Source of the DNA: Armatimonadota bacterium
GTDB taxonomy: Bacteria; Armatimonadota; JAAZEB01
Reading direction: 5' to 3'
DNA length: 64,000 nt
NCBI GenBank assembly: GCA_012512265.1
Contig: JAAZEM010000131.1
Span: forward strand, 1,837 to 65,836
Positions 27,787-63,194 of this stretch are shown here, one piece after another (position 1 is the stretch's first letter; the number at the start of each line of letters is the position of its first letter). Made by a program: the position numbers and the translations under genes. The notes beneath the pieces were generated by a model. The model saw only the letters and a list, made by a program, of their open reading frames with translations. It searched no databases and had not been told where the DNA came from.

Positions 27787-28156
27787 CGAGAGGTATCCTC
27801 CCACGGCTTGGATTGCTTCCCGACTCGCTCGTTGTAGAACGCGTGAACGGCAGGAGACAATACGATATGGCCTTCTAACCCAACTGACAGTATAGCACAC
27901 ATCCGTTAGGATGTAAAGAAGCATGCCGAGGGTGTTCTGGCTCCTCCATCTCGGCGAGTAGCGATGCGGATGGCGCGTGAGGAGGCGGGCGGCGTGGTGC
28001 CAGCGAGGGGCTGGCGCTGCAGGCGCGCCGGGCAGGTTTGGCAGCCGGAGCATCCGGGTAAGCAGGTCACAAGTGAGCTCAGGGATCGGCTTGTCTGGCT
28101 TGGGGCGATGGTGTGCTGCGCAGGCAGGAGGCGGGGCAAGGTGAGGAGGTCGCGAG

Positions 28157-28516
28157 GTGGCCAGGAAAGAGGGAAAGAAGGAGATCAGCGTCCGCGAGGC
28201 AGGACGCAAGGGTGGCGAGACAACCGCCGAGCGCCACGGCCGGGAGTTTTATGAGAGAATTGGGCGCAAGGGCGGCCCGATTGGGGGGCAGCGCCGTAAG
28301 GAGGAGTTGGGCCACGGGGGCTATGAGGAGCTGGGGCGCAAGGGCGGGAACGTGCGCAAGCGGCAGCTTGGCCCCGAAGGCTATTCGGAGCTGGGCAAGA
28401 TGGGCGGGAATGTGCGCAAGCAGCAACTGGGCCACGAGGGATACGAGGAACTGGGCCAGAAGGGCGGCCAGCGCGTCCGCGAGCTGATCGAAAAGGGGAA
28501 GCAGGCCGAGAGCTGA
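28157..28516 (+). CDS. KGG-repeat general stress protein (YciG/Con-10-like)
   Basis: Five GRKGG/GQKGG/GKMGG repeats spaced by GYEELG-type segments, a typical KGG-motif stress-induced protein. Confidence 0.8.
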
Positions 28517-28539
28517 GCGCCGCATTCGCGCGCGGGGCC

Positions 28540-28565
28540 GGGGAGGGAGACCGCGCTCTTCCTCC
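28540..28565. terminator. hairpin between the convergent KGG gene and dsbD (possible bidirectional terminator)
   Basis: 10-bp stem (GGGAGGGAGA / TCTTCCTCCC, with one G-U pair) and a 6-nt loop. No obvious U-tract. Confidence 0.35.
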
Positions 28566-28581
28566 CTAGCCCCCTGCCATT

Positions 28582-47449: not shown

Positions 47450-47714
47450 GCGTTCTTCTCGCGCATCGCCCGCCAGCCGCCCCGCGGTTGCCCGGAGGAT
47501 GGATGGAAGCCCCCAACCCGTCCCTCCCCGCGCTGTCAAAGCTTCTCTGACCGTGACGCCCGCGCGTATCACTGGTTGCGGAAGGAGTAGCGCCACTCGT
47601 CATAGAAGTTGAAATCACGAAGAGGTGTTCTCATGCCTTCATGGAGCTACCGCACGTGAAGACCCCTTGGGCCGCGCCAATCACTCAGCGCGATCGAGTT
47701 GGGGGAACGCCGGA

Positions 47715-48644
47715 GTGACACGACCTCTTCATCCTGGGGAGGCACCTATCGTTGCGGGGCTCACCCTGGCGTTGGGAGAGCCGGCACGGGCAGCGATGTA
47801 TCAGCCCCTGCTACGCCGCGCGGTCGCGGCGGAGTGGGAGATGGCCTTTGCCCGGCTGGCCGCGGGCGGCGCGGGGGCGGTCGCCGGCATCGTGTCTCGC
47901 GAAGGCGAGGGCGATCTCCAGGAGGGGATGTTCGCTCTCCCGCGCCTCGTACACCGGACCGGCATCGAGCCCTATCGTGCCCTCTTCCTCGCGGCGCTCC
48001 ACGACCGGATCCTCGATCGCCAGGAGCACGGCGTGTGCCTCTTCATCGACTGGGATACCGGTGGGCTTGGCGTCTACGCTGTTGACTTCGCCGATGGGAA
48101 CGCGCGCATCCTCACCTCCTCATTTCAACCGGCGATCTGCACGGTGGCGCTGGGAGAGGCGGTCGCCAGGCACGTGCTCCTGCCGGCAGCCATGCCAGGC
48201 GGGGCCAGCCTCTGGAACGATCTGGAGAGCGAGGAGAGAGCGCGTCTCCGCGGGGCAGGGGAGGGCCTGCTGCGGCGGTGCTGGCTTGGAAGTCGGGAGC
48301 GGTTCGTGTGCGCGATCCCGCCGGTGCCGAGGGGCCGGGCTCTCGCCCGCGGCGCGGTACTCTCGATCACGCGCGAGGCGCTCTTCGCGCAGTGTCGGCT
48401 GGCCCTTGCGACGGCGGTTGACGCGCTGAGTGGTGCGCTGGAGACGGTGATGAGCCGCTGCGACACGCCGCTCCGGGTGGTGGTGTCGGGCGAGGCGGCC
48501 CGCTGGCACGAGTTTCAGAGCGCCGTGCGCCGGACATGCGGCGATCTTCCGGTGCATCTGGCGCCAAGGCCGGAGTCTTTCGCGGCGCGAGGCGCCGCCC
48601 TGGCGGTGGCAGAGGAGCACCTTGGAACGAAGGGAACCGTGTGA
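47715..48644 (+). CDS. degenerate Hsp70/actin-fold protein (predicted pseudo-ATPase), first gene of the Hsp70/vWA/tubulin-like cluster
   Basis: Hsp70 NBD motifs are recognisable but eroded. Phosphate-1 GIDLGT is replaced by AGLTLALG, phosphate-2 DLGGGTFD by DWDTGGLGV, and adenosine motif GGSTRIP by VSGEAARWH. The C-terminus ESFAARGAALAV corresponds to 'deaVA.GAA'. The start is uncertain (GTG 47715 or GTG 47625). The stop overlaps the next ATG (ATGA). Confidence 0.6.
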   Translation: MTRPLHPGEAPIVAGLTLALGEPARAAMYQPLLRRAVAAEWEMAFARLAAGGAGAVAGIVSREGEGDLQEGMFALPRLVHRTGIEPYRALFLAALHDRILDRQEHGVCLFIDWDTGGLGVYAVDFADGNARILTSSFQPAICTVALGEAVARHVLLPAAMPGGASLWNDLESEERARLRGAGEGLLRRCWLGSRERFVCAIPPVPRGRALARGAVLSITREALFAQCRLALATAVDALSGALETVMSRCDTPLRVVVSGEAARWHEFQSAVRRTCGDLPVHLAPRPESFAARGAALAVAEEHLGTKGTV

Positions 48645-50761
48645 TGGCAAACGCCATTTCCGTGGGGATCGATCTGGGTACCAGCACGTGCGAGGTCGCC
48701 TATTGGGACTCCGTAGCCCGGCGGATACGCAACGTCTCCTTCGGCGGTGAAGGCGGGCCCATTGTGCCCTCCGCGGTGTGGTTTGATCGCGCGCGAGGGC
48801 GCACGGTGGTTGGTGACCAGGCCTACGCGATGCGCGTGCCCAAACACCGGGAGGTCGTGCTCAACATCAAGCGCCAGATGGGCACCGACTACCGGTTCGC
48901 GCTGGGTGGGCGGGAGTACACGCCTGCCGAGATCTCGGGCGAGATCCTCAGGTACCTGAAGGCGGAGGCGGAGCGCTTTACCGATGGCGAGGTGAAGCAG
49001 GCGGTGATCACCGTGCCGGCCAAGTTTGACACGCTGGCCCGCGAGCACACCGAGGAAGCGGCGCGGATCGCCGGCCTGGAGACGCTGATGCTCCTGCCGG
49101 AGCCCGTGGCCGCGCTTATCGGCTATGAGAGCGTGGCCCAGGATCCCGAGCGCGAGTATGTCGCCATGGTCTACGACTTCGGCGGCGGCACCTTCGACTG
49201 CAGTGTTGTCCATGCCAGGGGCAGGCAGTATCGCGTTCTCTCTAAGGCGGGGGTACACCGCCTGGGCGGCGCCCAGATTGACGAGCGGATCGCCGATCAG
49301 TTGATCCGCCCCAAGGTGTTGCATGCGGGCTTCGACCTGGCCAGCGAGGAGGAGTGGGCGCTCAAGATCCGCGCGAAGATCCTCGAGGTTGCGGAGGCCG
49401 CCAAGAAAAGCCTCTCCGATGAAAGCCGGCGCTCCGTGGTCGCCGTGCTCCCCCATCTCGTGGCGCCGGGGCGGCCTCCTCAGACCGTGCGCGTGGAGAT
49501 CACCCAGGAGGATCTGCAGAAGACCATCGCTGACCTGTTGCGTGTGGCCAACGAGCAGATGGCGCTCGCCCTGGAGAACGCGGGAATCTCTCGCGCCGAG
49601 CTCGATATGGTCGTCCTTGTCGGTGGCTCGACGCGCCTGCCCGCGATTCGAGAGGCTGTTCGCCAGTTCATGGGCGAGAAGGCGTTCGACGGCAGGGATG
49701 GCGGGGTTCGCAAGGTGCTCGCCGATGCCAATCCGGATCTCGTCGTCTCGCGCGGCGCCGCGCGCGTGGCCACCTCCTATGACCTGCGCGACGAGCGAAT
49801 TGAGCTGGTCGATATCCTCCTCGACACTGTCTACCTGCGCGTGCCGGGTTCCCTCACTCAATTCAGGCCGCTCTTCGCTCGGGGCACCGAGATCGAGCAG
49901 GCGAAGCGCACGCTTCGGCTGCAGTGGCCCCGAGGCGACACCGTCGCCGTCGATCTCTATGAGGGCGAGAAGGACGGCGCCCCGGGAGCGAAGTACGTGG
50001 GCACCCTCAAGTTGGGTCCGGCCTCTGTGCCCAAAGGGACTCCCGTTGAGCTCACCATCCAGTACCGCACCGACCGCGCGCTCCCAGAGGTGACGGCGCG
50101 GGTGAGGAAGACGGGCACCCCCATCCGGGCCACGGTGGAGTACGAGCAGCATAGCGTCCAGGCATCGGGATCGGCACGGCTGCAGGTGACCCCGGAGCTG
50201 GACCTCGTCTTCTGCATCGACACCACGGGGAGCATGGTGCATGGCGACCACCTCGAGAAGCTGCGCCACTGCTGCACCCGCTTCGTCAACGCCCTTGCCG
50301 AGAGTGATCTGGATCTCCGCCTGGCGGCGATCAGCTTTGGCGACCGCGCCGGCGGCGAGCGCGAGACGGTCTACTCCTTCACCCCGGACCCGCGCCTCTT
50401 CATCACGCGCGTTGGAAGCCTGAACGAGAACGACGGGGGAGACGAGCGGGAATCGGCGCTCGATGCACTGGCCGTGGCGCTCCGGCTTCCCTTCCGCGAG
50501 GGAGACACCCGGCATCACATCGTGCTCGTTACCGACGCGCCCCCGCACCGGCCGGAGAAGGGCTCGCTAGAGCAACTGGTCTCGCAACTGGCTGCCCACA
50601 ACATTCGAGTCGATGTGGTCGGGCCGTTCTGCCAGGAGTATGACACCGTGGTCGCTGGCACGGGAGGGCGGCTCTACAACATCGACGACGAGCTGGATCA
50701 GCTGTTTGCCGATCTCGAGGAGAGTATCGGGCACGCGAGCAGCGGCACGGAAGGGGCATGA
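48644..50761 (+). CDS. Hsp70-family ATPase (NBD plus beta-sandwich substrate-binding-like domain) fused to a C-terminal von Willebrand factor A domain
   Basis: Canonical motifs GIDLGTSTCEVA, ITVPAKFD, LLPEPVAALIGY, VYDFGGGTFDCSVV, and VVLVGGSTRLPAIREAV. An SBD-beta-like segment reads VDLYEGEK...GTPVELTIQYRTD. The vWA domain carries the MIDAS motif LVFCIDTTGSM (DTTGS at 50219-50233). Confidence 0.85.
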   Translation: MANAISVGIDLGTSTCEVAYWDSVARRIRNVSFGGEGGPIVPSAVWFDRARGRTVVGDQAYAMRVPKHREVVLNIKRQMGTDYRFALGGREYTPAEISGEILRYLKAEAERFTDGEVKQAVITVPAKFDTLAREHTEEAARIAGLETLMLLPEPVAALIGYESVAQDPEREYVAMVYDFGGGTFDCSVVHARGRQYRVLSKAGVHRLGGAQIDERIADQLIRPKVLHAGFDLASEEEWALKIRAKILEVAEAAKKSLSDESRRSVVAVLPHLVAPGRPPQTVRVEITQEDLQKTIADLLRVANEQMALALENAGISRAELDMVVLVGGSTRLPAIREAVRQFMGEKAFDGRDGGVRKVLADANPDLVVSRGAARVATSYDLRDERIELVDILLDTVYLRVPGSLTQFRPLFARGTEIEQAKRTLRLQWPRGDTVAVDLYEGEKDGAPGAKYVGTLKLGPASVPKGTPVELTIQYRTDRALPEVTARVRKTGTPIRATVEYEQHSVQASGSARLQVTPELDLVFCIDTTGSMVHGDHLEKLRHCCTRFVNALAESDLDLRLAAISFGDRAGGERETVYSFTPDPRLFITRVGSLNENDGGDERESALDALAVALRLPFREGDTRHHIVLVTDAPPHRPEKGSLEQLVSQLAAHNIRVDVVGPFCQEYDTVVAGTGGRLYNIDDELDQLFADLEESIGHASSGTEGA

Positions 50762-50766
50762 CACCA

Positions 50767-52298
50767 TGGCACGGATTGCTGAGAGGCCGCCAATCGTTAT
50801 CGGCGTGGACCTGGGGAATGCCTCCTGCCGGATGGCGCCCTGGCGCAACGTGAACAGCCACTCGCCAACGCCCGATACGATGGGCTTTCGCTCCTGCCCG
50901 GCGGTGGTGGCGCGCGACCATGAGGAGGGCGGGTGGCTTGCCGGCGCCAGCGCCCTGGAGATCGCCTATCGGGATGGGGTGGAGCTGTTTGACCACCTGA
51001 AGGACGGCATCCTCCAGGAGCGCGGGGCGAACGCGCGGAAGACGGCTGTCCAGCGCCTGCTCTCCAAGCTCAAGTTTGATCTCCAGGCGGAGTGCGCCGC
51101 GCGCGTCATTGACGCCGTGCTTTCCGTTCCCTACTCGTACACGCTGAAGCAGCGCCGGGCGCTCCGCAACGCCTGCTCGCTGGCGGGTCTCCCCGTGGCC
51201 GGGCTGATCAACGAGCCGGAGGCGGCTGTTCTGGGGTATCGGATTGACGAGCAGATTGAGGAAGGCAGCGAGCGGATTCTCGTCTTCGATGCCGGGGCCA
51301 CGCGGTGCACCGCGAGCGTGGTCCGGCTGAGCAAGCAGGGGGCCTACATCGATATCGAGCTCCTGAGCGAGGCGCACGCAGTTACAGAGGAGGGAGAGCC
51401 GGTCGGCGGCGACAGGATCGACGCCCGGCTGCTCGAGATGTTCGAGAGGGGCCGGCTGCAGATCCCGCCACTGCCTTCGCCAGAGGCCCAGGCGGCCGGG
51501 GATCAGATGGACCCGGTGGAGTACGAGCGCTGGCTGCGGCAACAGCTCCGGCGTGTCCTGCGCGAGGCCCGGCACCAGTTGAGCGGCGAGACCTCCTTCG
51601 AGTTTTCGGTGCCCTGGGCCGAGGAGAGCCTCGGCCGGCTGACACGCGACCATCTGGAGCGATGGGCCAGCTTCGATACCGAGATCACCGCGGCGATCCA
51701 GATGGCGGTGCAGGGCGCGCGCGACCGCGATGCCCCGAACGGCCTCCGGAATGACCAGATAGACCGCGTCCTGATCACCGGTGGGCTCAACCGCTCGCCT
51801 TTGATCCGCCGGCTCGTGGATCACTTCCCCCATGTGGAGCCGTGCGAGGATGGGTTCGAGGAGTACGCGGTCGCCTATGGCGCGGCGCGGTGCGCGGCGA
51901 TCCTCACGGGCCGGTGCGAGGGAGTGGTCTTCCGCCCGCGCGAGACGCCCGCGTTTGGGATCCGCACCGGGATCGACACCTTCGACAAGGTGATCCCGGA
52001 AAACGCGCCGCCAGGGTTCAAGGCGAAGAAGGTCTACACCCTGCCCAACCGCTACGCCGACCGCATGGTGCTGGAGGTGTGCCAGGGCTTCTCCCGACGG
52101 TTCCAAGACGAGCTGTCGCTGGGCGCGAAGGAGCTCCCCCTCCAGTTCCCCGAGGGCGCCGGCAAGGGCACCTACCTCGAGCGTGAGATCCACGTCGAGA
52201 TGGATCTCGCCGATACCAGGCTCCTGGTCACGGTGACCGACCGCACCAAGGGGATTTCCCAGCCGGTGCCCGATAGGCTGGAGCTCGAGGTGAGGTGA
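50767..52298 (+). CDS. divergent Hsp70-like protein (NBD plus SBD-beta-like) with partly degenerate nucleotide-binding motifs
   Basis: VIGVDLGNASCRMA (phosphate 1, T to N), LSVPYSYT, LINEPEAAVLGY, VFDAGATRCTASVV (degenerate phosphate 2), VLITGGLNRSPLI. It starts 5 nt after the previous stop and follows GGAAGGGG. Confidence 0.8.
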
Positions 52299-52310
52299 AG
52301 GAGGAAGCCC

Positions 52311-52889
52311 ATGGAAGGCCGTCCGAGAACGGTGGAAGAGGTCGACGAGAGGCAGAGGACGCTGCGGGAGGAGTTTCGCCGGCTCAACGATGCGCTTGAA
52401 AGCAAGTTTGGAGAAGCGATCACGAAGCGTCAGATCCTGGATGCCGCGCAGGCGTGCGAGGTGCTCCGACAGTTAGCTCGGGAACTGAAGGTGCTGAGCG
52501 ATGAGAGTGACAGGATGCGGGAACCCGAGGCGAGGCAGAGGGCGCTCGAGAGGTTCGTCAGCGGCCGCATGGATGACAAGGTGGGTGCCATCCAGAGCGA
52601 GGAGATTGGCAAGCTCAAGGATGATCTCAACGCGATACAAGCGGAACTGGCCAATCTGAGGGAGCAGCTAGAGACTGGGGTCAACCATGCGCTTCAGAAG
52701 ATAGCGGATGCGCAAGGGAAGGTAGATGTGACCGATGGTCTCCTGAAGGAGGCCATCAGGCAGCGGGACGATCTTTCCCAGAAAATCGAGCGCCTCGAGA
52801 GGATTGCCAGGGATCTGGATGCTTGCGAAAGGATGGCGGAGGTCGCTGGGGCTGAGCCAGCCGGCGGCCAGTGGGGGGATCACGGGTAA
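52311..52889 (+). CDS. coiled-coil protein (hypothetical)
   Basis: AAGGAGGAAG RBS. The 192-aa sequence is rich in E/R/L/K/Q with a heptad-like character. I see no globular motif. Confidence 0.6.
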   Translation: MEGRPRTVEEVDERQRTLREEFRRLNDALESKFGEAITKRQILDAAQACEVLRQLARELKVLSDESDRMREPEARQRALERFVSGRMDDKVGAIQSEEIGKLKDDLNAIQAELANLREQLETGVNHALQKIADAQGKVDVTDGLLKEAIRQRDDLSQKIERLERIARDLDACERMAEVAGAEPAGGQWGDHG

Positions 52890-52953
52890 CCGCCCCGGAT
52901 GTGTGGCGCGGTTTGCTATCCCGGAACGCCAGGGAGAGAGGCTGGGCTCGAAG

Positions 52954-54495
52954 ATGAAGAACGACTGGGGCCGGGCGGACTGGAGTCGGGTATTCTATGT
53001 ATCGCTGGTGTTCGCGATCGTGCTTGTCCCTGCCGCGTTGATCCATGTTCTCTACCGCCACTGGGGAGTCCCTGCCGCGTTGATCCCGACGGTCTGGGAA
53101 GCCCCGTGGTTCGAGCACTTGGTGGTAGTCTTTGCGTTTATGTCAGTGGTCGTTGCCTGGATCAGCTCTCGGAAGGCCAGGGAGTCGCCGTTGAAACCTG
53201 AGCCCGCTCTGGAGTCGAGCCCGCGGGTAGAGCCCTGGCGGGCGGAGAGCCTGCAGGAAGAGTGGAATGGCTGGGAGCGAAAGCTCGACACCTACCGCTG
53301 GATCCTGGACGGGGATCTGCCCGCGCTGGATCCGGGAGAATTGAGCCAGGCGCAGGCTGCATTCAACAGCTTGCGGGAGGGGATCGAGCGCTTGCAGGAC
53401 CCGGGCGATTCCGAGCGGCCTCGTGCCAACGTCCCGGACCGCACCTGGGTCCGGAATAGCCTCGAGACGGGCATCAGTGCGATACTCGACCGGGAAGAGG
53501 AGAGGCAGCGCCTTCGCGCTCTCGTTGAGAAGACGGTGACGGAGTTCCGGGAGCAGGTGGAAACCCTGCGGGAAGAGGTGCGCGTGCTTCAGCGAGAGGC
53601 GGGCGTGCCGGCGGAAGAGGCAGAAGGCCCGGGCGAGTCTGACAGCGGGGCGGGCCACCTTGCCAGCTTGCAGGAGAAGATAGGAGAGCTCCAGCGGCGT
53701 GTTGAGGCGCTGGCGGGTGAGTCCGCCGATGAGACTTCGGGCGCAGGAGCAGACGTGCTCCAGACCATCGACGGCCGGCTGTCGCGGATTACCGATGCCC
53801 TGGAAGCGAGGGCGTACGAGATTTCAATCCGCGATTTTCACCGCCGGCACGAGGAGTTCACTAACCTTCGCCGCCGGCTTGCCGGGGAGGTGCTGCCGCT
53901 CCTGGAAACCGCTCCTGGGGACGAGGCGGCGCGGCATTGCCACCGCGCGCTCTCGGAGCTGCTGGAGCGCCTGGATGGCCGTCTGGCGGCTGCGAAAGAG
54001 GCGGTCCGCCACCGGGGCGAAACCCCGGGTGGAGGCGGAGAGCTGGAGCGGCGCATCGAGCGGCTGGAGACGCGCGCGCACCGGCTGAAGGATGGTGGTG
54101 ACGCCTGTCTGATGGAGCTGGCCGAGCCGCTGGTGCAGGAGCACCTGCGTCCCTTAGTCGAGATGATCATCCGCGATTTTCTCCGGCCGCTGCTGGAGGA
54201 GGCGACACCGGTGGAAGGAGAGACCGCCAGGAGTGCCCGCGCCACGTTGCTGGGCGAAGTGGTAACGCTCGCGCGTAGAGTCCTGTTGGAGAGCATCCAG
54301 TTGGAGGTGATCGACCCAAAGGCAGGCAGCAAGCTGGAGGAGGAGGCGCACGACGAGATAGAGGTACTCGCCCCGGAGGGAGACGCGAGCCCGAACACGG
54401 TGGCGGAGGTGGTCGCGCCGGGCTACCGCTGGGCGGGAGAGGTGATCCAAAGGGCGCGCGTGTGCTCCTATCGGGAGAGAATGGACAGGGCCTGA
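52954..54495 (+). CDS. membrane-anchored long coiled-coil protein with a GrpE-like C-terminal beta-domain
   Basis: Two N-terminal TM helices (VFYVSLVFAIVLVPAALIHVLY and LVVVFAFMSVVVAWISS), then about 350 aa of coiled coil. The C-terminus LEVIDPKAGSKLEEEAHDEIEV...NTVAEVVAPGYRWAGEVIQRARVCSY parallels the GrpE C-terminus (cf. E. coli VEVI...PLDPNVHQAIAMV...[23 protein letters not shown]). The start is uncertain (an ATG at 52804 is also in frame). Confidence 0.65.
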   Translation: MKNDWGRADWSRVFYVSLVFAIVLVPAALIHVLYRHWGVPAALIPTVWEAPWFEHLVVVFAFMSVVVAWISSRKARESPLKPEPALESSPRVEPWRAESLQEEWNGWERKLDTYRWILDGDLPALDPGELSQAQAAFNSLREGIERLQDPGDSERPRANVPDRTWVRNSLETGISAILDREEERQRLRALVEKTVTEFREQVETLREEVRVLQREAGVPAEEAEGPGESDSGAGHLASLQEKIGELQRRVEALAGESADETSGAGADVLQTIDGRLSRITDALEARAYEISIRDFHRRHEEFTNLRRRLAGEVLPLLETAPGDEAARHCHRALSELLERLDGRLAAAKEAVRHRGETPGGGGELERRIERLETRAHRLKDGGDACLMELAEPLVQEHLRPLVEMIIRDFLRPLLEEATPVEGETARSARATLLGEVVTLARRVLLESIQLEVIDPKAGSKLEEEAHDEIEVLAPEGDASPNTVAEVVAPGYRWAGEVIQRARVCSYRERMDRA

Positions 54496-55623: not shown

Positions 55624-55644
55624 CAGGATGTGATGGGAGAAGTG

Positions 55645-57639
55645 ATGGCGGATAGTCGTTCGGCGAGCGTGGTGGAGGAGTTCCTGCCAGCGCCCTATCC
55701 GGCGCCTCTCTTCGTGGCGTGGGAGCAGCACCTCGATTTCGGGGAAGTTCGCCGGCCAGCGAGGAAGCGGTTGACATTCAAGGTCTCCAACATCGGCGGG
55801 GATGGTAACCTGGATGTGACGCTCCGACCGAACATCCCGGACCAGCAGTGGTTCCAGGTTCGCCCGACTCATCTCGTGATTCCGGCGGGCGAGGATCGCA
55901 TCGTTGACGTGGAGATCGATACGAGCCTGGAATCGTGCCCCCTCGGCCGGCACGACCTCGACATCCAGGTAGAGGCGCCCGGATCGATGGAGCCGGAGAT
56001 CCCGCGCATTCGGGTGTCGGTGGAGGTGCTCCGGGAGATTGTGCTGGTGTGCGACCCGGGCGAGATCGACCTGGGCGAAGTGCCCCTGGGCGAGAGCCGC
56101 ACCGTGACGGTGAGCATCCAGCGCAGTGATGAACGCGAGGTTTGCCTGAACGAGCGCCTGATCCAGCTGGTGGATGAAACCGGCAAGCCCCGGCCGGCGT
56201 GGGCCGACATTGAATTGGGAGCGCCGGGCCGGAAGCAGGAAGTCACGCTCACCTTCCACACGGCCAACCGGGCGATGCGCGAGTACCGCTGTGAACTGCG
56301 CCTGTGTGATACCGTCCCTGAGGTGAACCAGGTGGCGGTGCCCATCCACGTTTCCGTCAGCCCGCCGCCGCAGCTGGAGGTAGAGTGGGCGATCCCGCCG
56401 ATGCCGAACTTCACCGGCGACACCCAGGACGCGCAGCTCGCGGTGGGCAACTCCGGGGGCGGCGTCCTCCGCGGCCGAATCGCTGGCGACCAGTACTGGT
56501 TGCGTGTCCTGAATGGCGAGTTCAGCGTGGCGGCCGGCCAGATGCACACGGCGACGGTCCGAATCGGTGACGCCCGGTTGCGGGTTGGCACGTATCACGG
56601 TCATCTTGAAATCTTCTCGAATGACGGCGGGCGTAGCCGCGTGCTGCGCGTGCCAATCGAGCTGGAGGTGGTGGACCGGAGCCGCTGCCCCGTGGAGATC
56701 TACTTCGAGCCGGATCTGGGCGCGCTTCACCGCCGCCAGACGGCGGAGCGCGCGCTCACGATCACTAACCTGATGGCCCAGCCGTTTGAGGGGAGACTGA
56801 TCTCCGGGAGCCCCGACTGGATCCGGGTGAAGGGGGGCATGGAGGAGGTGCGCCTTGGCCCGGGCGAGTCCAGGCAACTCCTCCTGGAGGTCGACCCGCG
56901 GCGCCTCCCCGCGAAGGACGGCCCCACCAGGCACAAGGCGGCGTTGCAGCTGGTCGATTCCACGGGCAAGGAACGCTGGAAAAAGACCGCGACTTTGGAG
57001 CTCGTGCCCGCACCGTCCTCGCCGCTCGTGCGGTTGCTTCTGGCCTTCTGGGCGTTGGTGCTCCTCGCGGGCCTGGCATGGGGCGGAAAGCAGGTGTATG
57101 ACGGCCCGGTGCAAAGGATCCTCTCCGCGCGCACCCGGGCCGCGACGGTGGCCACGCCGGCGCCCGCACCGGCGGCACCGCCGGCTCAGCAGCAGGCGGC
57201 CACGGCCAGACCGGCCCCGGCTCAGCCGGCTCCTGAGTCGCAGAGCGCGCCTGAGGCCACGGAGAAACCACGCAGGGTAGCGCCGGATTCGGCCCGGGCG
57301 CGCTCTCTCTACGCGGAGGGGACCGCGCACTTCCAGCGGGGAGAGTGGCGCCTGGCTGCCGACCTCTTTGACCAGGCTGCGGCGGTGGATCCCGCGCCCG
57401 CTGGGTCGCTTTTGATGGTGGGCCGCAGCCGCTACCACCTCGGCGAGTGGGATGCCGCGGCGAAGGCGCTGGAGGAGGCGACGCGGCTCAAGCCCGATTC
57501 GGCGGCGGCCCACTTGTGGCTGGGCCGGGTCTATCTGGAGCAGGGCAACCGGGAAGCGGCCTCGCGTGAGTTTGAGGCCGCGCTGAAGGCAGATCCGATG
57601 AATAGGCAGGCACGCGATGAGCTTCAGAAGCTTCGGTAA
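55645..57639 (+). CDS. membrane protein with 4-5 N-terminal Ig-like (ASH/PapD-like) repeats, one TM helix, a Pro/Ala-rich linker and C-terminal TPR repeats
   Basis: Repeats take the form LDFGEV...LTFKVSNIGGDG.L, IDLGEVPLGESRTVTVSI, LAVGNSGGGVLRG and so on. The TM helix is LVRLLLAFWALVLLAGLAW, and the TPR region reads ARSLYAEGTAHFQRGEWRLAADLFDQAAAVDP...LGRVYLEQGNREAASREFEAALKADP. ATG 55645 follows GGGAG, with in-frame alternatives at 55630 and 55633. Confidence 0.7.
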   Translation: MADSRSASVVEEFLPAPYPAPLFVAWEQHLDFGEVRRPARKRLTFKVSNIGGDGNLDVTLRPNIPDQQWFQVRPTHLVIPAGEDRIVDVEIDTSLESCPLGRHDLDIQVEAPGSMEPEIPRIRVSVEVLREIVLVCDPGEIDLGEVPLGESRTVTVSIQRSDEREVCLNERLIQLVDETGKPRPAWADIELGAPGRKQEVTLTFHTANRAMREYRCELRLCDTVPEVNQVAVPIHVSVSPPPQLEVEWAIPPMPNFTGDTQDAQLAVGNSGGGVLRGRIAGDQYWLRVLNGEFSVAAGQMHTATVRIGDARLRVGTYHGHLEIFSNDGGRSRVLRVPIELEVVDRSRCPVEIYFEPDLGALHRRQTAERALTITNLMAQPFEGRLISGSPDWIRVKGGMEEVRLGPGESRQLLLEVDPRRLPAKDGPTRHKAALQLVDSTGKERWKKTATLELVPAPSSPLVRLLLAFWALVLLAGLAWGGKQVYDGPVQRILSARTRAATVATPAPAPAAPPAQQQAATARPAPAQPAPESQSAPEATEKPRRVAPDSARARSLYAEGTAHFQRGEWRLAADLFDQAAAVDPAPAGSLLMVGRSRYHLGEWDAAAKALEEATRLKPDSAAAHLWLGRVYLEQGNREAASREFEAALKADPMNRQARDELQKLR

Positions 57640-58882
57640 CCGTGGGTGGAGGCGGCTCCTTCTTGCCACGCTTGTTGGCGCGGCCAGCCTGGGCGCGTGC
57701 CCGAGGGTTTGGGCAGAGGCAGGCGAGGGCGTCGAGACTGTGCAGGAGCAGGCGGGGCAGATCGCGCAGAAGATCGCGCCGTACAAGGGGAAGTTTGTCG
57801 TCTTCGTCCTGGACGTCTCTGGGAGCATGACGAACCAGGGGCGGCTGCAGGCGAGCAACGAGGCGCTGGCCACGATCGTGCGCAATGGCACGCGGGTGGG
57901 CGACCGCGTCGCGATCTTCTCCTTCGACGTCAGCCCGGAGCTGCTGCTTAAGGAGACGGTCATCCAGAAGGAGAGCGACAAGAAGATCGTGATCGACCGG
58001 ATCCCGACGGTGAGCAGCAACACGGTGGGCTCGAACATCCGGTGGGCGCACCACGAGGCGCTCAAGCTGCTGGAGCCGTCGGAGTGTCCTTACCAGGTGT
58101 GCGTCCTGGTGAGCGACAACCTGCACGACCCGCCGGGTGAAACGGACCGCTTCTATCCGGATTACCTGAACTACTACATTCCCGGCACGATGGAGGCGCC
58201 CTCCACCCCGCAGAGTAACGACTACGCTCGCCTGCGCGAGAAGTTTCGCGGCGGCACCCGGCTCACCTTCGGGATTGGCGTCAACATCTCCGAGACGGGC
58301 GCCGTGCAGGAGCTGCCGCCACTGAAGAAGACTCCGGCCTGGGTGTGGCTGGTGGCCGCGGCGGCGGTTGTCGCGCTGGCTGGCGCCGGCTGGGTGGGAG
58401 CAAGCGCGTGGCGACGCGCCGCAGAGGCACGCCAGATCGCCAACAGTCCGATGAACGTTGTGATTCGCAACGTCACCCCGGATGGCACGGCCAGCCCCTT
58501 CAGCGCGGAGACGCATCTGGTGCTGCAGCCGAACGAGTCGTTCACCATCGGAGGCGCGCCTTTCGGTATCGGGCAGGTGGTTTCCCTCCCCGGCGCCATG
58601 ATGAAGGAACCGGTGGCGCGAGTCCACCGGCGCGGCCTTAGCTTCAGCCTCGAGGCGCTGCCCGGCCAGGAGACGGTGGCGGTTTACGTGGACGGCATCG
58701 AGGCCGTGCCTGGCGGAGATGCGATCCCTATCCGCTTGGGGCAGACGATCAGCGTGCGCTATCGGGTGATGGCTGGGATCGAGAAGAGCGTGGATCTTCT
58801 CTTCGCAGACCCGCGGGCGGCCGAAGAGCAGGCGGCAACCGAGGAAGTAGTCTTCGACGAGAGTCACCAGTCTCCCTATTGA
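57617..58882 (+). CDS. lipoprotein-like vWA domain protein with a TM helix and a C-terminal FHA-like domain
   Basis: Signal peptide with a possible lipobox (LGAC). vWA MIDAS FVVFVLDVSGSM (DVSGS at 57812-57826). TM helix AWVWLVAAAAVVALAGAGWVGA. The C-terminal segment FTIGGAPFG...VARVHRRGLSFSLE...VYVDG..V.....IRLGQTISV is FHA-like (tentative). It overlaps the previous gene by 23 nt. Confidence 0.75.
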   Translation: MSFRSFGNRGWRRLLLATLVGAASLGACPRVWAEAGEGVETVQEQAGQIAQKIAPYKGKFVVFVLDVSGSMTNQGRLQASNEALATIVRNGTRVGDRVAIFSFDVSPELLLKETVIQKESDKKIVIDRIPTVSSNTVGSNIRWAHHEALKLLEPSECPYQVCVLVSDNLHDPPGETDRFYPDYLNYYIPGTMEAPSTPQSNDYARLREKFRGGTRLTFGIGVNISETGAVQELPPLKKTPAWVWLVAAAAVVALAGAGWVGASAWRRAAEARQIANSPMNVVIRNVTPDGTASPFSAETHLVLQPNESFTIGGAPFGIGQVVSLPGAMMKEPVARVHRRGLSFSLEALPGQETVAVYVDGIEAVPGGDAIPIRLGQTISVRYRVMAGIEKSVDLLFADPRAAEEQAATEEVVFDESHQSPY

Positions 58883-58913
58883 GGGGGAGCGGCATAGCAG
58901 GGGGGAGCAGACG

Positions 58914-61900
58914 ATGGCCGTGGAGTTGGATGCCGTAGGCGTATCCCGAAGCATCATCATTGGCTGCGGGGGCACCGGACACAGGATCATCCTGGAGACG
59001 CGCAAGCGCCTGGTGGACAAGTACGGGTCGCTGAGCAAGATCCCGATAGTGCAGTTCCTACAGCTCGATACGACACCACTCAAGGAGGAAGTGCGCTACG
59101 CGAAGGAGGTCAACCTGACCCCCAACGAGTACGTCTTCATGCAGGTGCAGAACATCGCCAAGTACCGGCGTGGCCTTGAGAATGAGCCCCACCTCTACCC
59201 GCATCTGGCGTCCTGGGTGCCGCGCTCGATCCTCACGACGAACGTCGACCAGGGCGCGGGCCAGGTGCGTGCGCGGGGGCGCTTCGCCTTCTTTGAAAAC
59301 TACCCTACGATCCGCGAGCGCCTCTACGCGGCGATGAACCGCGTCACCAGCGACCAGGCGTATCGCGAGGCCACGTCGAACGGCATCCGGGTAAGCGAAG
59401 GCGGGATCTCGGTCTACATCCTCACCTCGCTGATGGGGGGCACGGGGAGCGGCATCTTCCTGGACCTGGCCTACCTGGCCAAGAATGAGTTGAGCCAGGC
59501 CGCGGGCGCGAAGACGATCGACACGATTGGCATCCTGTTGCTGCCCCCGGTGGGCGGCGACCTGGTGGGCGTCTACTTTGCGAACGCCTATGCCTCGCTG
59601 ATGGAGCTCAACCACTTCAACAACCCCGCCACCGAGTTCGTGGCCCAATACCAGCCGGGCATGCCCGAGTTGCGCGATCCGGACGACCCCTTCACCTTCT
59701 GCTACCTGATGGACTCGCGCAACGAAGAGGGAGACGTGATCGGAGAGGACAAGCTGATCCAGATGATCGGCCACTACCTCTTCCTCGATCTCACGCACGA
59801 GTTCGCGAGCAAGAAGCGCGAGAACCGCGACAACCACAAGCAGTGGCTGCGCCGCGATGAGTTCGACTGCCCCACCAAGTACCTTAGCTTCGGCCTCTCG
59901 GCGCTCTGCTTCCCCAAGGACCAGGTGCTTCACGTCTGCGCCAATCGGCTGGCAAAGGAGCTCGTCTCGGGGTGGATGGATCCCGCGGCCGTCTTCGATG
60001 ATCGCGAGCTTCACGAGGAGGCCATCAACCGCATGGCCCAGGCCAACTGGGACTGCGATCGCGTGCGGGCCGGACTGGCGGTAGAGGGCCAGAGCCAGCA
60101 TGGGAGGAGCGCGACCGATGCCGTAGGCGAGATGGTGCGCCGCGCTGAAGCCACCGCCAAACAGGCGATGAACGAGAGCGCGATTCGCGCCCTGGAGAGG
60201 CTGATCCAGCAGGATCTCCCCCCCTGGATCTCCGCCGGCGACGAGGCCAATCCGGACGTGCGCCAGCGCAGGGGGCTGGGCATCTACCCGGAAGAGATCC
60301 GCAAGGGGCTTGAACGGCGCATCGAGCACATGAGCGCGTGGCTGGTGGAGCTGGTGACGGAGCTGGTGAACGACCCGAAGTACCGCCACGAAGGCTGCCG
60401 CCGCATGCTGGCCTGCCTGGAGCGGATTGCGACCCAATCTCGCGACCGGTTGATCCGCGACAGCACCGAGCTGAAGGCGCGGATGGACGCGCTGAATGGT
60501 CAGATCCAGAAGATGCTGAGCCAGTCGCGTGGCGAGATCCGGAAGGCGATGGAATCCGCCGCCAACGGCAGCCGGCGAAAAGCCGGCCGCGGCGCGACCA
60601 CCAATCGCGGCACGGCCGAGGCGGCGATCTCCAGCTTCTGCCGGGCAGTGGCTCAGCACGCGCAGGACAGCGTGCAGGCGTTCGTCTGCGACGCCGCCCA
60701 CCGCTTCTACACCGAGATGCTCGCCTGCCTGGCCGAGCGTAATCGCGATCTGAGGCGCTACGAGGAGCATGTGGGCGGGCTGCGCGAGCGCTTCCGTGCC
60801 GAGGAGATGCGCTTCCTGGAATCCTCCCCGGCCGTCAACGGTGAGATCCTCTACACCGGCGGAGATGAGGACGCGGATGAAGCGATCAACCGCTATTACC
60901 AGCATGTGACCGCGACAGAGAGACGCCAGATAGACGACCGCGTCCAGGCGGAGCTGGGCATCACCTCCATGGGCCTCTACGGCTACTTCCTGGCCGAGGG
61001 CGCCGGCTCTATCGACACGATTGCAGGAACTATCCTGCGGCACACGACGGCGGCGTTCAAAGACGACATTGAGGCGGTCGAAGTGCTCAATCTCTTCTTC
61101 GAAAGGTACCCGGACGACCGCGCCGCCGAGGAGCAGATGAAGCGCCTCAACCGCCTCTGCTCGCCATTCGTCCACGCGAAAGCGGGCGGGATGGCCGGCT
61201 TCACCGACGACCCGCAGATGCGCCAGCGCAACATCGGCATCCCCAACGCCGAGGAGCCGAAGACATCGGCGGAGCGGCGCTTCCGGGCGATGGTCACCAA
61301 AGCCGCGTCGGTGACCGACCCGCGCACCTGGGTGACGGTGGCCTCGCGCAGTGAGGCGCTCTTCCTCCATGAGCGTTCCGGCTTTCCCCTGCGGCTCATG
61401 GAGGACGCGTTGCGTCGGTGCGAAAGCCACTACGAACACACGCGCAAGCGCCGGAAAGAGCCAGTGCACGCCCGCGTGGATTTCCAACAGTGGGAGAGTC
61501 TCACGCCGGCGCCGCCACACCTGAAGGCGGAAGCGTGGAAGATCTTCTTCATCGCGGCGGCTTCCGGCGTGCTCACGTGCCGGCCGGTGGAGGTGCAGAC
61601 CCAGCGCGGCCAGGAGGAGCGCTTCAGCTACGAGATCAGCTATTTCGATGACCAGGGCGTGCAGCATACCGAGGTGGTGGCCGACCGCCTCCCGCCCTTC
61701 GATGCCCTCCGCTTCGATGGGAGAGACTATCCGAATGGCGTGATGCAGCTCCTCCTGAAGCTGTGTCACCCCGAGGGATTGACCGATCTGGCCCGGCGCA
61801 TCCAGCGCAAGCAGGAGGAGACTGTGGCCAAAGAAGGGGTGGCGGCGATCCGGGAGCGCCTCCTCGATCTCGTCAACAACCGGCTGTCGCCTCAAGCCGA

Positions 61901-62345
61901 GTTCACGCCGCACGCGCGCGAGGTGGTGAGTGGCTACCTCCGCTCGCTTCAGAGCGCGCCAGGAGCGGGCGCGCCCGCGACTCCCCCGGCGCCGGCACCC
62001 GCGGGCGCTACAGGCGACCGGCTCGCGAAACTGCGCGGCCTCCTCGAGAAGCGCCTGATGACCGCTTCGGACTACGCCGCGAAGCTGAAGGAGATGCGCG
62101 GCGAGGGCGTGCTCACATCGGATGAGTGCCGGGCGAGCCTGAATGAACTCCGCGACGCCGGTCTCCTGACGCCGGCGGAGTACGACGCAGCTTGCCAGGC
62201 GCTCGGCCTCGAAACGGCGGAGAGCCCGGCGGAAGAGAACTCGATTGAGGCCCGCCTGATGAAGCTGAAGAGCCTCTTCGAGAAGGGATTGATCACCCAG
62301 GAGGATTACGACGCGAAGCGAACCGCGATTCTGGCGGAAATTTGA
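58914..62345 (+). CDS. giant tubulin/FtsZ-like GTPase (Tubulin_2-type) with a long helical region and C-terminal SHOCT-like repeats
   Basis: N-terminal T1-like IIIGCGGTGHRI. Tubulin signature LTSLMGGTGSGIFLDLAYL (MGGTGSG at 59433-59453). GAGQVRARGRFAFF. Three C-terminal repeats of the SHOCT type at about 62010-62342 (LAKLRGLLEKRLMTASDYAAKL, LNELRDAGLLTPAEYDAA, LMKLKSLFEKGLITQEDYDAKRTAIL). GGGGGGAG RBS. Confidence 0.8.
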   Translation: MAVELDAVGVSRSIIIGCGGTGHRIILETRKRLVDKYGSLSKIPIVQFLQLDTTPLKEEVRYAKEVNLTPNEYVFMQVQNIAKYRRGLENEPHLYPHLASWVPRSILTTNVDQGAGQVRARGRFAFFENYPTIRERLYAAMNRVTSDQAYREATSNGIRVSEGGISVYILTSLMGGTGSGIFLDLAYLAKNELSQAAGAKTIDTIGILLLPPVGGDLVGVYFANAYASLMELNHFNNPATEFVAQYQPGMPELRDPDDPFTFCYLMDSRNEEGDVIGEDKLIQMIGHYLFLDLTHEFASKKRENRDNHKQWLRRDEFDCPTKYLSFGLSALCFPKDQVLHVCANRLAKELVSGWMDPAAVFDDRELHEEAINRMAQANWDCDRVRAGLAVEGQSQHGRSATDAVGEMVRRAEATAKQAMNESAIRALERLIQQDLPPWISAGDEANPDVRQRRGLGIYPEEIRKGLERRIEHMSAWLVELVTELVNDPKYRHEGCRRMLACLERIATQSRDRLIRDSTELKARMDALNGQIQKMLSQSRGEIRKAMESAANGSRRKAGRGATTNRGTAEAAISSFCRAVAQHAQDSVQAFVCDAAHRFYTEMLACLAERNRDLRRYEEHVGGLRERFRAEEMRFLESSPAVNGEILYTGGDEDADEAINRYYQHVTATERRQIDDRVQAELGITSMGLYGYFLAEGAGSIDTIAGTILRHTTAAFKDDIEAVEVLNLFFERYPDDRAAEEQMKRLNRLCSPFVHAKAGGMAGFTDDPQMRQRNIGIPNAEEPKTSAERRFRAMVTKAASVTDPRTWVTVASRSEALFLHERSGFPLRLMEDALRRCESHYEHTRKRRKEPVHARVDFQQWESLTPAPPHLKAEAWKIFFIAAASGVLTCRPVEVQTQRGQEERFSYEISYFDDQGVQHTEVVADRLPPFDALRFDGRDYPNGVMQLLLKLCHPEGLTDLARRIQRKQEETVAKEGVAAIRERLLDLVNNRLSPQAEFTPHAREVVSGYLRSLQSAPGAGAPATPPAPAPAGATGDRLAKLRGLLEKRLMTASDYAAKLKEMRGEGVLTSDECRASLNELRDAGLLTPAEYDAACQALGLETAESPAEENSIEARLMKLKSLFEKGLITQEDYDAKRTAILAEI

Positions 62346-62387
62346 GACCGTGCCACGTTTGGTTGCTGGTGAGTGGAGGCCGGTGCA

Positions 62388-63194
62388 GTGAGTGAGTCGG
62401 ACCGGCTGAGGCGGCTTCGCAAGCTGCGGGAGGCGCTCGATGCGCCGCTCGTGCCGCGCGGCATGTCGCGCGCCTCGGTCGCTCACTATCCGACCGTGCC
62501 GCCCCGGTACACCTATCCGGGTCCGGTGGTACCGGGCACGCGCGCGGAGCTCGCCGCGGCGCCGAAGGGCTCGCGCCCGCTCCGGTGGCTCGCGGCCGCG
62601 CTCTCGCCACTCGCCGCTCTGGAGCGGTGGCACCTGCAGGCAGCCACGGTCGCGCTGGCGATCCTAGGCGCGCTGAACGCCTACTGGTTTCAGTGGGGCC
62701 TGGAAAAGGCGGCGATCACCATCATCGCCACGGCGGCGCTGCCGGCGCTACTCAGCGGCCTCTGCGACCTCCTTTTCCGGCTTACCGTCATTCCGGGGAT
62801 TCGCCTGCACGTGGCGCTGCTTCAGTGGGCGCGCGAGCGCCATCGCGCGCTCGTGATTGTGAGAGCCTGGGCCGACACCCCTCTCCGGGGGCGCTGGAAA
62901 CGGGCGGTGCAGGTTCAGTTCGCCTCGGGGGCGATCCCGGCGCGGACGCTCGACGTGGTGACGGACCTCTACGACGACAACTCGAAGCTGGATATCGCCC
63001 TCCTGGTGGAGGCGCCGGCACTCCCTTTGGACGACCTCCTTGTCTGGGTGCGCGTGCCGGATGGCCGGCTGGCTGGGATGGAGGCGAGCATCCGCCGGTT
63101 TCGAGAGGAGCGGTGCGCGCGCTGCCTGGGCGAGGAGACAGACTGCGCCCTCTGCGGCGGCACCTACCGGGTGCCAGAGGCGCAATTCCTGTGA
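62388..63194 (+). CDS. membrane protein with a C-terminal CxxC...CxxC zinc-ribbon (hypothetical), last gene of the cluster
   Basis: GTG 62388 lies 8 nt after GGAGG (alternative GTG at 62373). TM helices ATVALAILGALNAYWF and ITIIATAALPALLSGLCDLLF. The C-terminus reads RCARCLGEETDCALCGGTYRVP. Confidence 0.55.
   Translation: MSESDRLRRLRKLREALDAPLVPRGMSRASVAHYPTVPPRYTYPGPVVPGTRAELAAAPKGSRPLRWLAAALSPLAALERWHLQAATVALAILGALNAYWFQWGLEKAAITIIATAALPALLSGLCDLLFRLTVIPGIRLHVALLQWARERHRALVIVRAWADTPLRGRWKRAVQVQFASGAIPARTLDVVTDLYDDNSKLDIALLVEAPALPLDDLLVWVRVPDGRLAGMEASIRRFREERCARCLGEETDCALCGGTYRVPEAQFL

Follow-up and report, generated by a model that had tools for sequence, protein, structure and literature searches.

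A window of 64,000 nucleotides (nt) from an uncultured Armatimonadota bacterium (assembly GCA_012512265.1, contig JAAZEM010000131.1, positions 1,837 to 65,836 of the forward strand; G+C content about 66%) carries at 47625-63194, on its (+) strand, ten co-directional open reading frames (ORF1 to ORF10), each of which abuts, overlaps or lies near its neighbour. A first-pass annotation, made from the DNA letters, had noticed this tight packing and read the genes as an operon joining three Hsp70-like proteins, two GrpE-like factors, two von Willebrand factor A-type (vWA) proteins and a giant tubulin/FtsZ-like GTPase; our ORF calls and junction sequences bear out the ten frames at their coordinates. 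We find that the operon is a very rare new version of the bacterial tubulin systems that are known from prediction only.

ORF1 and ORF2 share a single base (GTGATGG at 48642-48646); the junction at 48644 reads TGATG, not ATGA as first described, and the gap between ORF2 and ORF3 is 4 nt rather than 5 nt. The other junctions that had been listed agree with our reading: 12 nt between ORF3 and ORF4, with AGGAGG inside, direct contact of the ORF5 TGA with the ORF6 ATG (54495/54496), a 23-nt overlap of ORF7 with ORF8, and 21 nt between ORF6 and ORF7 for one choice of start codon (6 nt for the other). A further 31 nt separate ORF8 from ORF9, and 27-42 nt separate ORF9 from ORF10. Promoter-like and terminator-like matches over the scanned operon region were no more numerous than in shuffled sequence, an Rfam scan returned no family and a tandem-repeat scan nothing meaningful. 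We conclude that the ten genes are organized as a single predicted operon. Long antisense ORFs lie opposite ORF9 (59058-62633, (-) strand, 1191 amino acids (aa)), ORF7/ORF8 (847 aa) and ORF2 (677 aa); none is backed by a family match, such frames are typical of DNA with 66% G+C, and we regard them as high-GC artefacts and not as genes.

The first three genes encode Hsp70 paralogues. ORF2 (48644..50761, 705 aa) is a fusion of an Hsp70 and a vWA domain (Pfam HSP70, 1e-65; VWA/VWA_4). Alignment to canonical DnaK showed that it retains GIDLGTST, IKR, EPVAAL, DFGGGTFD and GGSTRLP, that its phosphate-1, phosphate-2 and adenosine motifs and the equivalents of K70 and E171 are intact, and that a hydrophobic interdomain linker and a beta substrate-binding domain (SBD) follow. 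The alpha-helical lid is missing and its place is taken by the C-terminal vWA domain (about 50201-50758), which has a metal-ion-dependent adhesion site (MIDAS) of the form DTTGS...D. The earlier description of ORF2 as a canonical Hsp70 fused to a vWA domain is therefore right for both domains and the catalytic motifs but not for the lid. ORF3 (50766..52298, 510 aa; Pfam HSP70, 1.8e-35) is a divergent Hsp70 with a nucleotide-binding domain (NBD) and a beta SBD, after which it terminates, also without a lid; its phosphate-2 (DAGATRCT) and adenosine (GGLNRSP) motifs are partly degenerate. ORF1 (47625..48644, 339 aa) gave no Pfam match, with E up to 10 tried, and no useful PDB sequence match. When ORF1 and a homologue from a related contig (L026) were aligned to an Hsp70 alignment with hhalign, aa 133-330 corresponded to NBD positions 160-352, that is, lobe II (probability 92%, E 6e-7). 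Its N-terminal part of about 110 aa is not conserved, the Hsp70 catalytic motifs are lost, and in a near-identical metagenome-assembled genome (MAG) at NCBI the start corresponds to 47715. ORF1 is best read as a degenerate relic that consists of a nucleotide-binding domain only, and ORF2, judged by its motifs, is the sole fully competent Hsp70 of the operon.

These genes are followed by three that encode coiled-coil proteins. ORF4 (52311..52889, 192 aa) has weak coiled-coil-type matches only and evolves fast, with 27% identity to its homologue in the related locus L003. ORF5 (52954..54495, 513 aa; alternative GTG start at 52903) is predicted to form a transmembrane (TM) hairpin, with helices at aa 15-33 and 53-71, followed by a long coiled coil and a GrpE-like C-terminal domain (about 54283-54462), which scored 27.9 bits against the Pfam GrpE gathering score of 25.8. 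ORF6 (54496..55623, 375 aa) is a soluble paralogue of ORF5 (27% identity, E 2e-5) that likewise ends in a GrpE-like domain after a coiled coil (about 55456-55617; 31.4 bits against the same gathering score). Both matches are limited to the C-terminal part of the Pfam model, positions 104-165. In alignment to E. coli GrpE, for which a hand-entered reference sequence was used, the LLPVID, DPxxH, GY and RxAxV motifs are kept in all three lineages in which the operon is found (see below). A J-domain was not detected in any of the ten ORFs, either as a DnaJ Pfam match or as an HPD tripeptide.

The tubulin relative is ORF9 (58914..62345, 1143 aa), in which a Tubulin_2/FtsZl1 GTPase domain (58953-59966; Pfam Tubulin_2, PF13809, 3e-73) is followed by an alpha-helical region of about 650 aa and by three C-terminal SHOCT repeats (about 62013-62342), of which one is a Pfam match (2e-11) and two were read from the sequence. 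The GxGGTG and GGTGSG loop columns are invariant among 45 homologues. A PDB sequence search with ORF9 found no related entry. The AlphaFold2 (AF2) model of residues 1-440, with a predicted local distance difference test (pLDDT) score of 81.6, was matched by Foldseek to CetZ, FtsZ and tubulin only, the best match being 4b45 (E 6e-7). A further nearly invariant block, N224..Y226-A227..L229..E231 (NAYAxLxELN), sits where, by sequence, one expects T7/H8, the region that in polymerizing GTPases of this superfamily supplies an acidic residue to the active site of the adjoining subunit.

Immediately upstream, ORF8 (57617..58882, 421 aa) combines a signal peptide of the Sec type, which may include a lipobox, with a vWA domain (Pfam VWA_2, 2e-9) with a complete and conserved MIDAS (DVSGS...T...D), a TM helix (aa 243-261) and a C-terminal beta-sandwich (about 58451-58807). 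Foldseek searches with the AF2 model (pLDDT 78) matched the vWA structures 6pyo and 3ibs and, for the beta-sandwich, the FHA structures 4ejq, 2eh0, 5a8i and 1uht, KIF1A/B and ArnA among them. AF2 and Foldseek are the sole source of this FHA likeness. Canonical phosphothreonine (pThr)-binding residues are not conserved, and the C-terminal domain is therefore FHA-like by fold only. The first reading of ORF8 as a vWA, TM and FHA-like protein thus stood in its architecture, but not in the pThr-binding residues that an FHA domain would canonically have. The same two folds act together in the ArnA/ArnB complex of Sulfolobus (FHA and zinc ribbon in one partner, vWA in the other; PDB 8s05, 5a8i, 5a8j), and the ORF8 model matches both. 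In ORF8, however, they lie in one chain on opposite sides of the membrane, the pThr residues are not conserved and the operon has no kinase, and the likeness, as modelled, is one of folds only.

ORF7 (55645..57639, 664 aa; alternative GTG start at 55630) carries an immunoglobulin (Ig)-like array (Pfam HYDIN_VesB_CFA65-like_Ig, 1e-7), a TM helix at aa 466-484, a Pro/Ala-rich linker and C-terminal TPRs (about 57286-57618; TPR_2, 8e-16). Its repeats score as HYDIN/ASH/PapD-like, with Fn3-like matches below threshold only. Pfam supports at least one Ig-like domain in ORF7 and three or more in its homologue in the distant locus L008, which has ASH, PapD-like and DUF1573 matches together with TPR; the homologue in the L003 lineage has no TPR. 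The last gene, ORF10 (62388..63194, 268 aa; alternative GTG start at 62373), encodes a TM hairpin, identified by TM scan, and a C-terminal zinc ribbon (CxxCxG...CxxCGG). Its homologue in L060 (L060:14858-15832) keeps the cysteines as CPRCDGGG..CPLCGGDG, twice the CxxCxGxG pattern of the DnaJ cysteine-rich repeat, and has an additional N-terminal CxxC..CxxC. The likeness of the ORF10 zinc ribbon to the DnaJ repeat is a motif-level lead. Pfam searches at E up to 10 gave nothing credible for ORF10, the ORF8 C-terminus or the ORF9 helical region, no ORF has a Pfam match to a kinase or to OmpA, and the Walker A pattern GxxxxGK[ST] is absent from all ten.

Signal peptide prediction and the TM scan provide a predicted topology for the products of the operon. 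The vWA domain of ORF8 and the TPRs of ORF7 are predicted to face the periplasm. On the cytoplasmic side would lie the FHA-like domain of ORF8, the Ig array of ORF7, the Hsp70s, ORF6 and ORF9, together with both ends of ORF5 and ORF10, which appear to be membrane hairpins. Thus, of the four membrane proteins that had been proposed to carry domains on both sides of the membrane, all have TM segments, but domains of some size on either side are predicted for two only, ORF7 and ORF8. The remaining domain assignments of the first-pass annotation were borne out: a degenerate and a second divergent Hsp70 (ORF1 by hhalign, ORF3 by Pfam), two GrpE-like C-termini above the gathering score, an Ig-like, TM and TPR protein (Pfam and TM scan), a tubulin-like GTPase with GGTGSG and SHOCT repeats (Pfam and AF2/Foldseek) and a membrane zinc-ribbon protein (TM helices and CxxC..CxxC).

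The operon is known in three diverged lineages, all of them metagenomic. The first is the source species itself, represented by further contigs (L001, L002 and L027-L029). In the second (L003, L026 and L060) the same ten genes stand in the same order, with the same genes downstream; identity to the window proteins is 65% for ORF2, 63% for ORF3, ORF7 and ORF9, 58% for ORF8, 45% for ORF6 and 27-31% for ORF5, ORF4 and ORF10. The third (L008) is more distant: the Hsp70-vWA protein is 54% identical, the second Hsp70 46%, the Ig-TPR protein 36%, the GrpE-like protein 31% and the Tubulin_2 protein, which has the loop GGTCSG, 26%. L008 has no ORF1 and a single GrpE-like gene, and encodes a protein with the signal peptide-TM-beta layout of ORF8 and no BLAST similarity to it. 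The Hsp70 module is thus tied to Tubulin_2 even across a different tubulin lineage, which argues for a functional link and not for chance.

The first-pass annotation had allowed that the juxtaposition might be accidental, and recurrence of the gene set in three lineages disfavours this. An Hsp70/GrpE stress operon placed by accident upstream of a vWA-Tubulin_2 operon with which it has nothing to do could in principle be accommodated, since the ORF6/ORF7 (6-21 nt) and ORF8/ORF9 (31 nt) gaps might house promoters and the vWA and Tubulin_2 pair occurs alone elsewhere. We consider such an accident highly improbable, given the adjacency in three lineages, one with a different Tubulin_2 lineage, the overlapping and abutting genes, and the promoter- and terminator-like matches at the level of shuffled sequence. 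In addition, the Hsp70 bears a vWA domain like that of its downstream partner, and Hsp70s of the ORF2 and ORF3 types were found nowhere else in our searches. Taken together, the domains and the conserved neighbourhood support the earlier proposal of a dedicated membrane-associated unit of an Hsp70/exchange module, vWA partners and a tubulin-fold GTPase.

In a collection of 5.8 billion proteins, the Hsp70-vWA protein formed four clusters, beyond which the matches were to ordinary DnaK, 34% identical. When 1.84 billion representatives were searched exhaustively with ORF3, five proteins of its type reached E<1e-30, and the next-best Hsp70-like proteins were about 30% identical. With so few clusters and representatives, we conclude that the assembly is very rare and lineage-restricted and not a widespread machine. 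Scanning metagenomes with the SBD and vWA segment of ORF2 returned contigs of the same species only, together with 25 other loci, each with a distantly related stand-alone vWA protein and no other gene of the operon, and ORF3 searched against plasmids gave generic matches at the level of DnaK/HscC only. Relatives of ORF9 were traced from a 99% identical protein (P0001). A genome-contig scan with ORF9 found SHOCT-tail matches in unrelated genomes and one contig of 1 kb. A 1083-nt contig (L011, JAKOWJ010000116.1) matching the 3' end of ORF9 at 99% identity lies in a MAG labelled Pseudomonadota, a placement that is probably a binning error.

Within the source species, comparison of the window with L027 and L001 showed strains that are otherwise 97-100% identical and whose variation is mosaic, being concentrated in 52954-55623 (ORF5-ORF6) and also in ORF4. 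In ORF5, 72 of 487 residues differ, with 32 gap columns in addition, in the TM hairpin and the middle of the coiled coil, and the ratio of non-synonymous to synonymous substitution rates (dN/dS) is 0.65. The C-terminal stretch of about 130 aa is almost constant, with differences at the extreme C-terminus only. Changes in ORF6 cluster in the C-terminal beta-domain, and in ORF4 non-synonymous exceeds synonymous polymorphism (pN > pS), on very few changes. For ORF2 and ORF3, dN/dS between near-identical strains is 0.17-0.22, which indicates purifying selection. One 99% identical MAG (L001:6997-7098, compared with window positions 55460-55970) lacks about 450 nt, which encode the GrpE-like C-terminus of ORF6 and the N-terminus of ORF7, and also carries an indel of about 170 nt in ORF5; a contig from ENA (L002) has a complete ORF7. 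The 450-nt gap may have arisen because a mixture of strains was collapsed in assembly, or it may be a true deletion.

The genes that flank the operon belong to ordinary metabolism and maintenance. Upstream, mostly on the (-) strand, are ClpC, RadA, a PIN-TRAM protein, IspDF and a class IV aminotransferase, and a GFO/IDH/MocA oxidoreductase on the (+) strand ends 175 nt from ORF1. In a 99% identical MAG labelled Armatimonadota (GCA_035371725.1), a GH123 glycosidase lies downstream of the cluster, followed by hypE/D/C/F on the opposite strand. Because the neighbours on both sides are housekeeping genes, the operon is bounded where it was first drawn, and no mobile-element genes were present among the genes checked on either side. 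Farther away, window positions 28001-30000 have an AT skew of +0.21, compared with about 0 elsewhere, and contain a DsbD-like thiol:disulfide interchange gene (28582-30408, (-) strand).

Full-length ORF9-like proteins, often with SHOCT, are common in Armatimonadota (about 30% identity at 92-99% coverage). In three other members of the phylum (L005-L007) a Ser/Thr kinase or PQQ propeller protein is encoded with an ORF8-like vWA protein and a Tubulin_2-SHOCT protein, without Hsp70 or GrpE. The vWA proteins beside Tubulin_2 in L005 and L006 are 36% identical to ORF8, and all three operons encode two or three membrane proteins with weak bPH matches. Since the vWA-Tubulin_2 pair is shared by the Armatimonadota operons, ORF8 and ORF9 are the conserved and ancestral core. 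Compared with these sister operons, in which the core is orthologous, a kinase/propeller regulatory module is present and the Ig-TPR protein is absent, the Hsp70, GrpE and Ig-TPR genes of the window appear as a lineage-specific module in the place of the kinase.

Sister operons also bear on a simpler function for the chaperones. Hsp70 is an established folding chaperone, and the NBD and beta SBD of ORF2 are competent by motifs; the Hsp70s and GrpE-like factors might just fold, hold or target to the membrane the large products of the operon, without any switching. ORF9, with its 1143 aa and long helical region, and the ORF7 Ig-like array would be the aggregation-prone clients. We regard this explanation as improbable. 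The sister operons have equally large ORF9-like proteins without a private Hsp70, of the three Hsp70 paralogues two have degenerate catalytic motifs, and a MIDAS vWA domain in place of the lid, together with a membrane-anchored exchange factor, points to docking and localization and not to bulk folding.

Relatives of the operon and of its core pair have proteases for neighbours. In L060 (and also in L061) an 830-aa gene on the (+) strand (L060:1-489), with a C-terminal CHAT caspase-like domain (3.7e-27, VISGCDAA motif), shares an ATGA overlap with the beginning of the ORF1 homologue and makes an eleven-gene operon there; no CHAT gene is present in the window. On plasmid pNPUN01 of Nostoc punctiforme (L055) a vWA-Tubulin_2 pair lies amid CHAT, caspase, S8 peptidase and TPR genes, and on an Azospirillum plasmid (L059) Tubulin_2 stands beside three caspase-family genes and OmpA genes. 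DUF4384 and PEGA genes are also found around Tubulin_2 on these two plasmids. Megaplasmids of Meiothermus (L056:10306-18383) and Thermus (L057:10404-18363) share a conserved block of vWA, Tubulin_2, a hypothetical protein of about 680 aa and a BrxL Lon-like protease. This block adjoins Swt1-HEPN, DUF1156, helicase and transposase genes in Meiothermus, and TROVE, exonuclease and RecQ genes in Thermus. Among 50,697 phage records, no Tubulin_2 was found.

We compared the operon with systems described in the literature. Makarova and Koonin (2010, Biol Direct 5:33; PMC2875224) defined FtsZl1, proposed a role in membrane remodelling and described vWA/FtsZl1 operons in which the partners are kinases, diverged GTPases and OmpA proteins, along with numerous membrane proteins peculiar to single lineages. 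Like these, the present operon has a Tubulin_2 gene directly after a vWA gene with an intact MIDAS, several membrane or secreted partners, lineage-specific accessories and a predicted membrane-associated complex. The Ser/Thr kinase, diverged P-loop GTPase and OmpA protein, frequent but not obligatory in that class, were not found here; conversely, the three Hsp70 paralogues, two GrpE-like factors and Ig-TPR protein are not mentioned in that study (PMC2875224). In gene content, the operon has what defines the vWA-FtsZl1 (Tubulin_2) class.

A second comparison is with the conflict systems built on a DO-GTPase and GAP1, as defined by Kaur, Burroughs, Iyer and Aravind (2020, eLife 9:e52696; PMC7159879). 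The DO-GTPases, one or two per system, are P-loop GTPases of the TRAFAC class that often bear zinc ribbons at the N-terminus, and the GAP1 protein, encoded beside the GTPase, is built of GAP1-N2, -M and -C domains. Neighbourhoods of GAP1-N2 were reported to follow one of three 'non-overlapping' themes each: tubulin with vWA; HSP70 with GrpE, with or without an NBD-only Hsp70, accompanied by a protein in which fast-evolving FNIII repeats are fused to DnaJ or TPR; and kinase with PP2C and vWA (PMC7159879). The tubulin and HSP70/GrpE themes, described as mostly actinobacterial or firmicute, were ascribed to thresholded conflict systems (PMC7159879). Here the two themes are united in one Armatimonadota operon. 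Shared features are a tubulin with a C-terminal helical extension, a membrane-bound vWA protein with a beta-rich domain, the combination of HSP70, GrpE and an NBD-only Hsp70, a protein in which beta-sandwich repeats are joined to TPR, zinc ribbons and many TM components. Among the differences, the Hsp70-vWA fusion is not described in PMC7159879, and the ORF7 repeats score as ASH/HYDIN/PapD-like as opposed to the FNIII of the described systems. No ORF contains GxxxxGK[ST] or matches a GTPase family of Pfam or NCBIfam, the Pfam DO-GTPase model having been run without a positive control. Neither did any ORF match GAP1 in Pfam, of which the copy used presumably contains GAP1 models, or show a comparable architecture of three globular domains, and all ten are accounted for in other ways. 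Since both DO-GTPase and GAP1 are absent, the operon is not a member of that conflict-system family, although it very likely works in a similar manner.

With respect to the DnaK-GrpE-DnaJ cycle, ORF2 has in common the motifs for ATPase activity, the linker between the domains and the beta SBD, and ORF5 and ORF6 share with GrpE the C-terminal domain by which it contacts the Hsp70 NBD, along with long helical stalks. In contrast to that cycle, the lid is replaced by a vWA domain, two of the Hsp70 paralogues are catalytically degenerate, no J-domain is encoded, ORF5 and ORF6 are two to three times the length of GrpE, and ORF5 is membrane-anchored. The CoCoNuT Hsp70-like systems (PMC11090510) were also considered and rejected; they are linked to McrBC and have no tubulin or GrpE. 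The first-pass annotation knew of no characterized system with this gene set. In the literature that we searched, neither the full set nor the sister operons L005-L007 are described, but the component themes are, in PMC2875224 and PMC7159879. We conclude that the parts were known separately, and that what is new is the union of both themes without the GTPase/GAP1 pair, together with the Hsp70-vWA fusion.

Our tentative preference, which falls a little short of an even chance, is that the operon encodes a membrane-spanning, NTP-driven vWA-FtsZl1 assembly system that serves a conflict or cell-death response. A private Hsp70 cycle would replace the DO-GTPase and GAP1, or the Ser/Thr kinase, as the switch of the related operons. 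ORF8 and ORF7 would form a transmembrane sensor or scaffold, and ORF9 would polymerize with GTP at the inner leaflet, where its SHOCT tail may tether or oligomerize it. ORF2 could clamp a client, either ORF9 or a segment of the scaffold, by its beta SBD, with the MIDAS vWA domain at the position of the lid docking it to an acidic partner, and the degenerate paralogues ORF3 and ORF1 might modulate ORF2. The long-stalked ORF5, anchored in the membrane, and ORF6 would bring ADP release, and with it, we propose, the release of clients, to the membrane. ORF10 may pass clients on by its zinc finger, which resembles the DnaJ Cys-repeat. The output would be a tubulin-like polymer beneath the membrane whose assembly or disassembly is gated by a threshold.

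Hints of conflict are found in the CHAT gene coupled to the operon in L060, the CHAT/caspase, BrxL and HEPN neighbours of the distant pairs, the swaps of accessory genes around a fixed core, the hypervariability of ORF4-6 and the placing of tubulin/vWA and HSP70/GrpE gene sets among thresholded conflict systems (PMC7159879). A more specific version, in which the operon is an immune or cell-death machine that lacks a GTPase switch, in which the Hsp70 cycle gates tubulin polymerization on a periplasmic vWA/TPR signal, and in which the cycle, in the sister lineage, also licenses the CHAT protease, seems to us possible but unlikely.

Several observations weigh against a conflict or cell-death function, and some of them favour a membrane-attached, tubulin-like cytoskeletal or envelope-remodelling apparatus for shape, vesicles or envelope biogenesis, in which Hsp70 and GrpE would serve assembly and turnover and phage conflict would play no part. 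The flanks (ClpC, RadA, IspDF, hyp) are housekeeping genes and those checked include no mobile elements, ORF2 and ORF3 are under purifying selection (dN/dS about 0.2), and full-length ORF9-like proteins are widespread in the phylum. Inheritance appears vertical, with the downstream synteny of GH123 and hypE/D/C/F kept between lineages, though GH123 is 51% identical there while ORF2, ORF3 and ORF9 are at 63-65%. Searches of PADLOC-DB v2 gave weak coiled-coil matches only for ORF4 and ORF5 (JetC, ZorA, LmuB; E 1e-4 to 1e-2) and none for the other eight genes, Tubulin_2 is absent from the phage records, and membrane remodelling is the role already proposed for FtsZl1/vWA operons (PMC2875224). Such a housekeeping role has to contend, however, with the translationally coupled CHAT protease of the L060 lineage, with the distant megaplasmid vWA-Tubulin_2 pairs amid caspase, BrxL, HEPN and transposase genes, and with accessory modules that are swapped among close relatives and an ORF4-6 region that is mosaic between strains. 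Moreover, as the Hsp70 module is extremely rare, an essential function in cell biology would be odd. We give this role a lower probability than the conflict response, but vertical inheritance and purifying selection accord with it just as well, and both functions that the first-pass annotation had proposed, envelope remodelling and anti-phage conflict, are still plausible.

Other points count against a conflict or cell-death system in their own right. The operon in the window has no recognizable effector in the form of a protease, nuclease or pore protein, and the literature that we searched holds no experiment on the activity, structure or phenotype of any Tubulin_2 protein. No J-domain partner is encoded, and the Hsp70 cycle would therefore need host DnaJ or a non-canonical trigger. 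We infer which protein is the client, in which direction regulation runs and every contact between proteins, and the three lineages are known from metagenomes only. The operon gives FtsZl1/Tubulin_2 unusually accessible biochemical handles: ORF2 has intact ATPase motifs, there are two GrpE-like factors and two MIDAS vWA domains, and the TM topology is clear, and therefore specific contacts and dependencies are testable.

FtsZl1/Tubulin_2 has been a subject of comparative genomics since 2010 and was linked to predicted conflict systems in 2020. A conserved core, a kinase or GTPase exchanged for Hsp70/GrpE, and an added CHAT protease suggest a modular grammar in which kinase, GTPase and Hsp70 are perhaps interchangeable NTP-dependent switches. 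If the operon is indeed an immune machine, it would be the first instance of a prokaryotic tubulin polymer under the control of a private Hsp70 system and would give the first functional handle on FtsZl1/Tubulin_2. If confirmed, the modular grammar would extend Hsp70 biology in bacteria beyond proteostasis, and would help to decide between immunity and envelope remodelling as the role of these bacterial relatives of tubulin.

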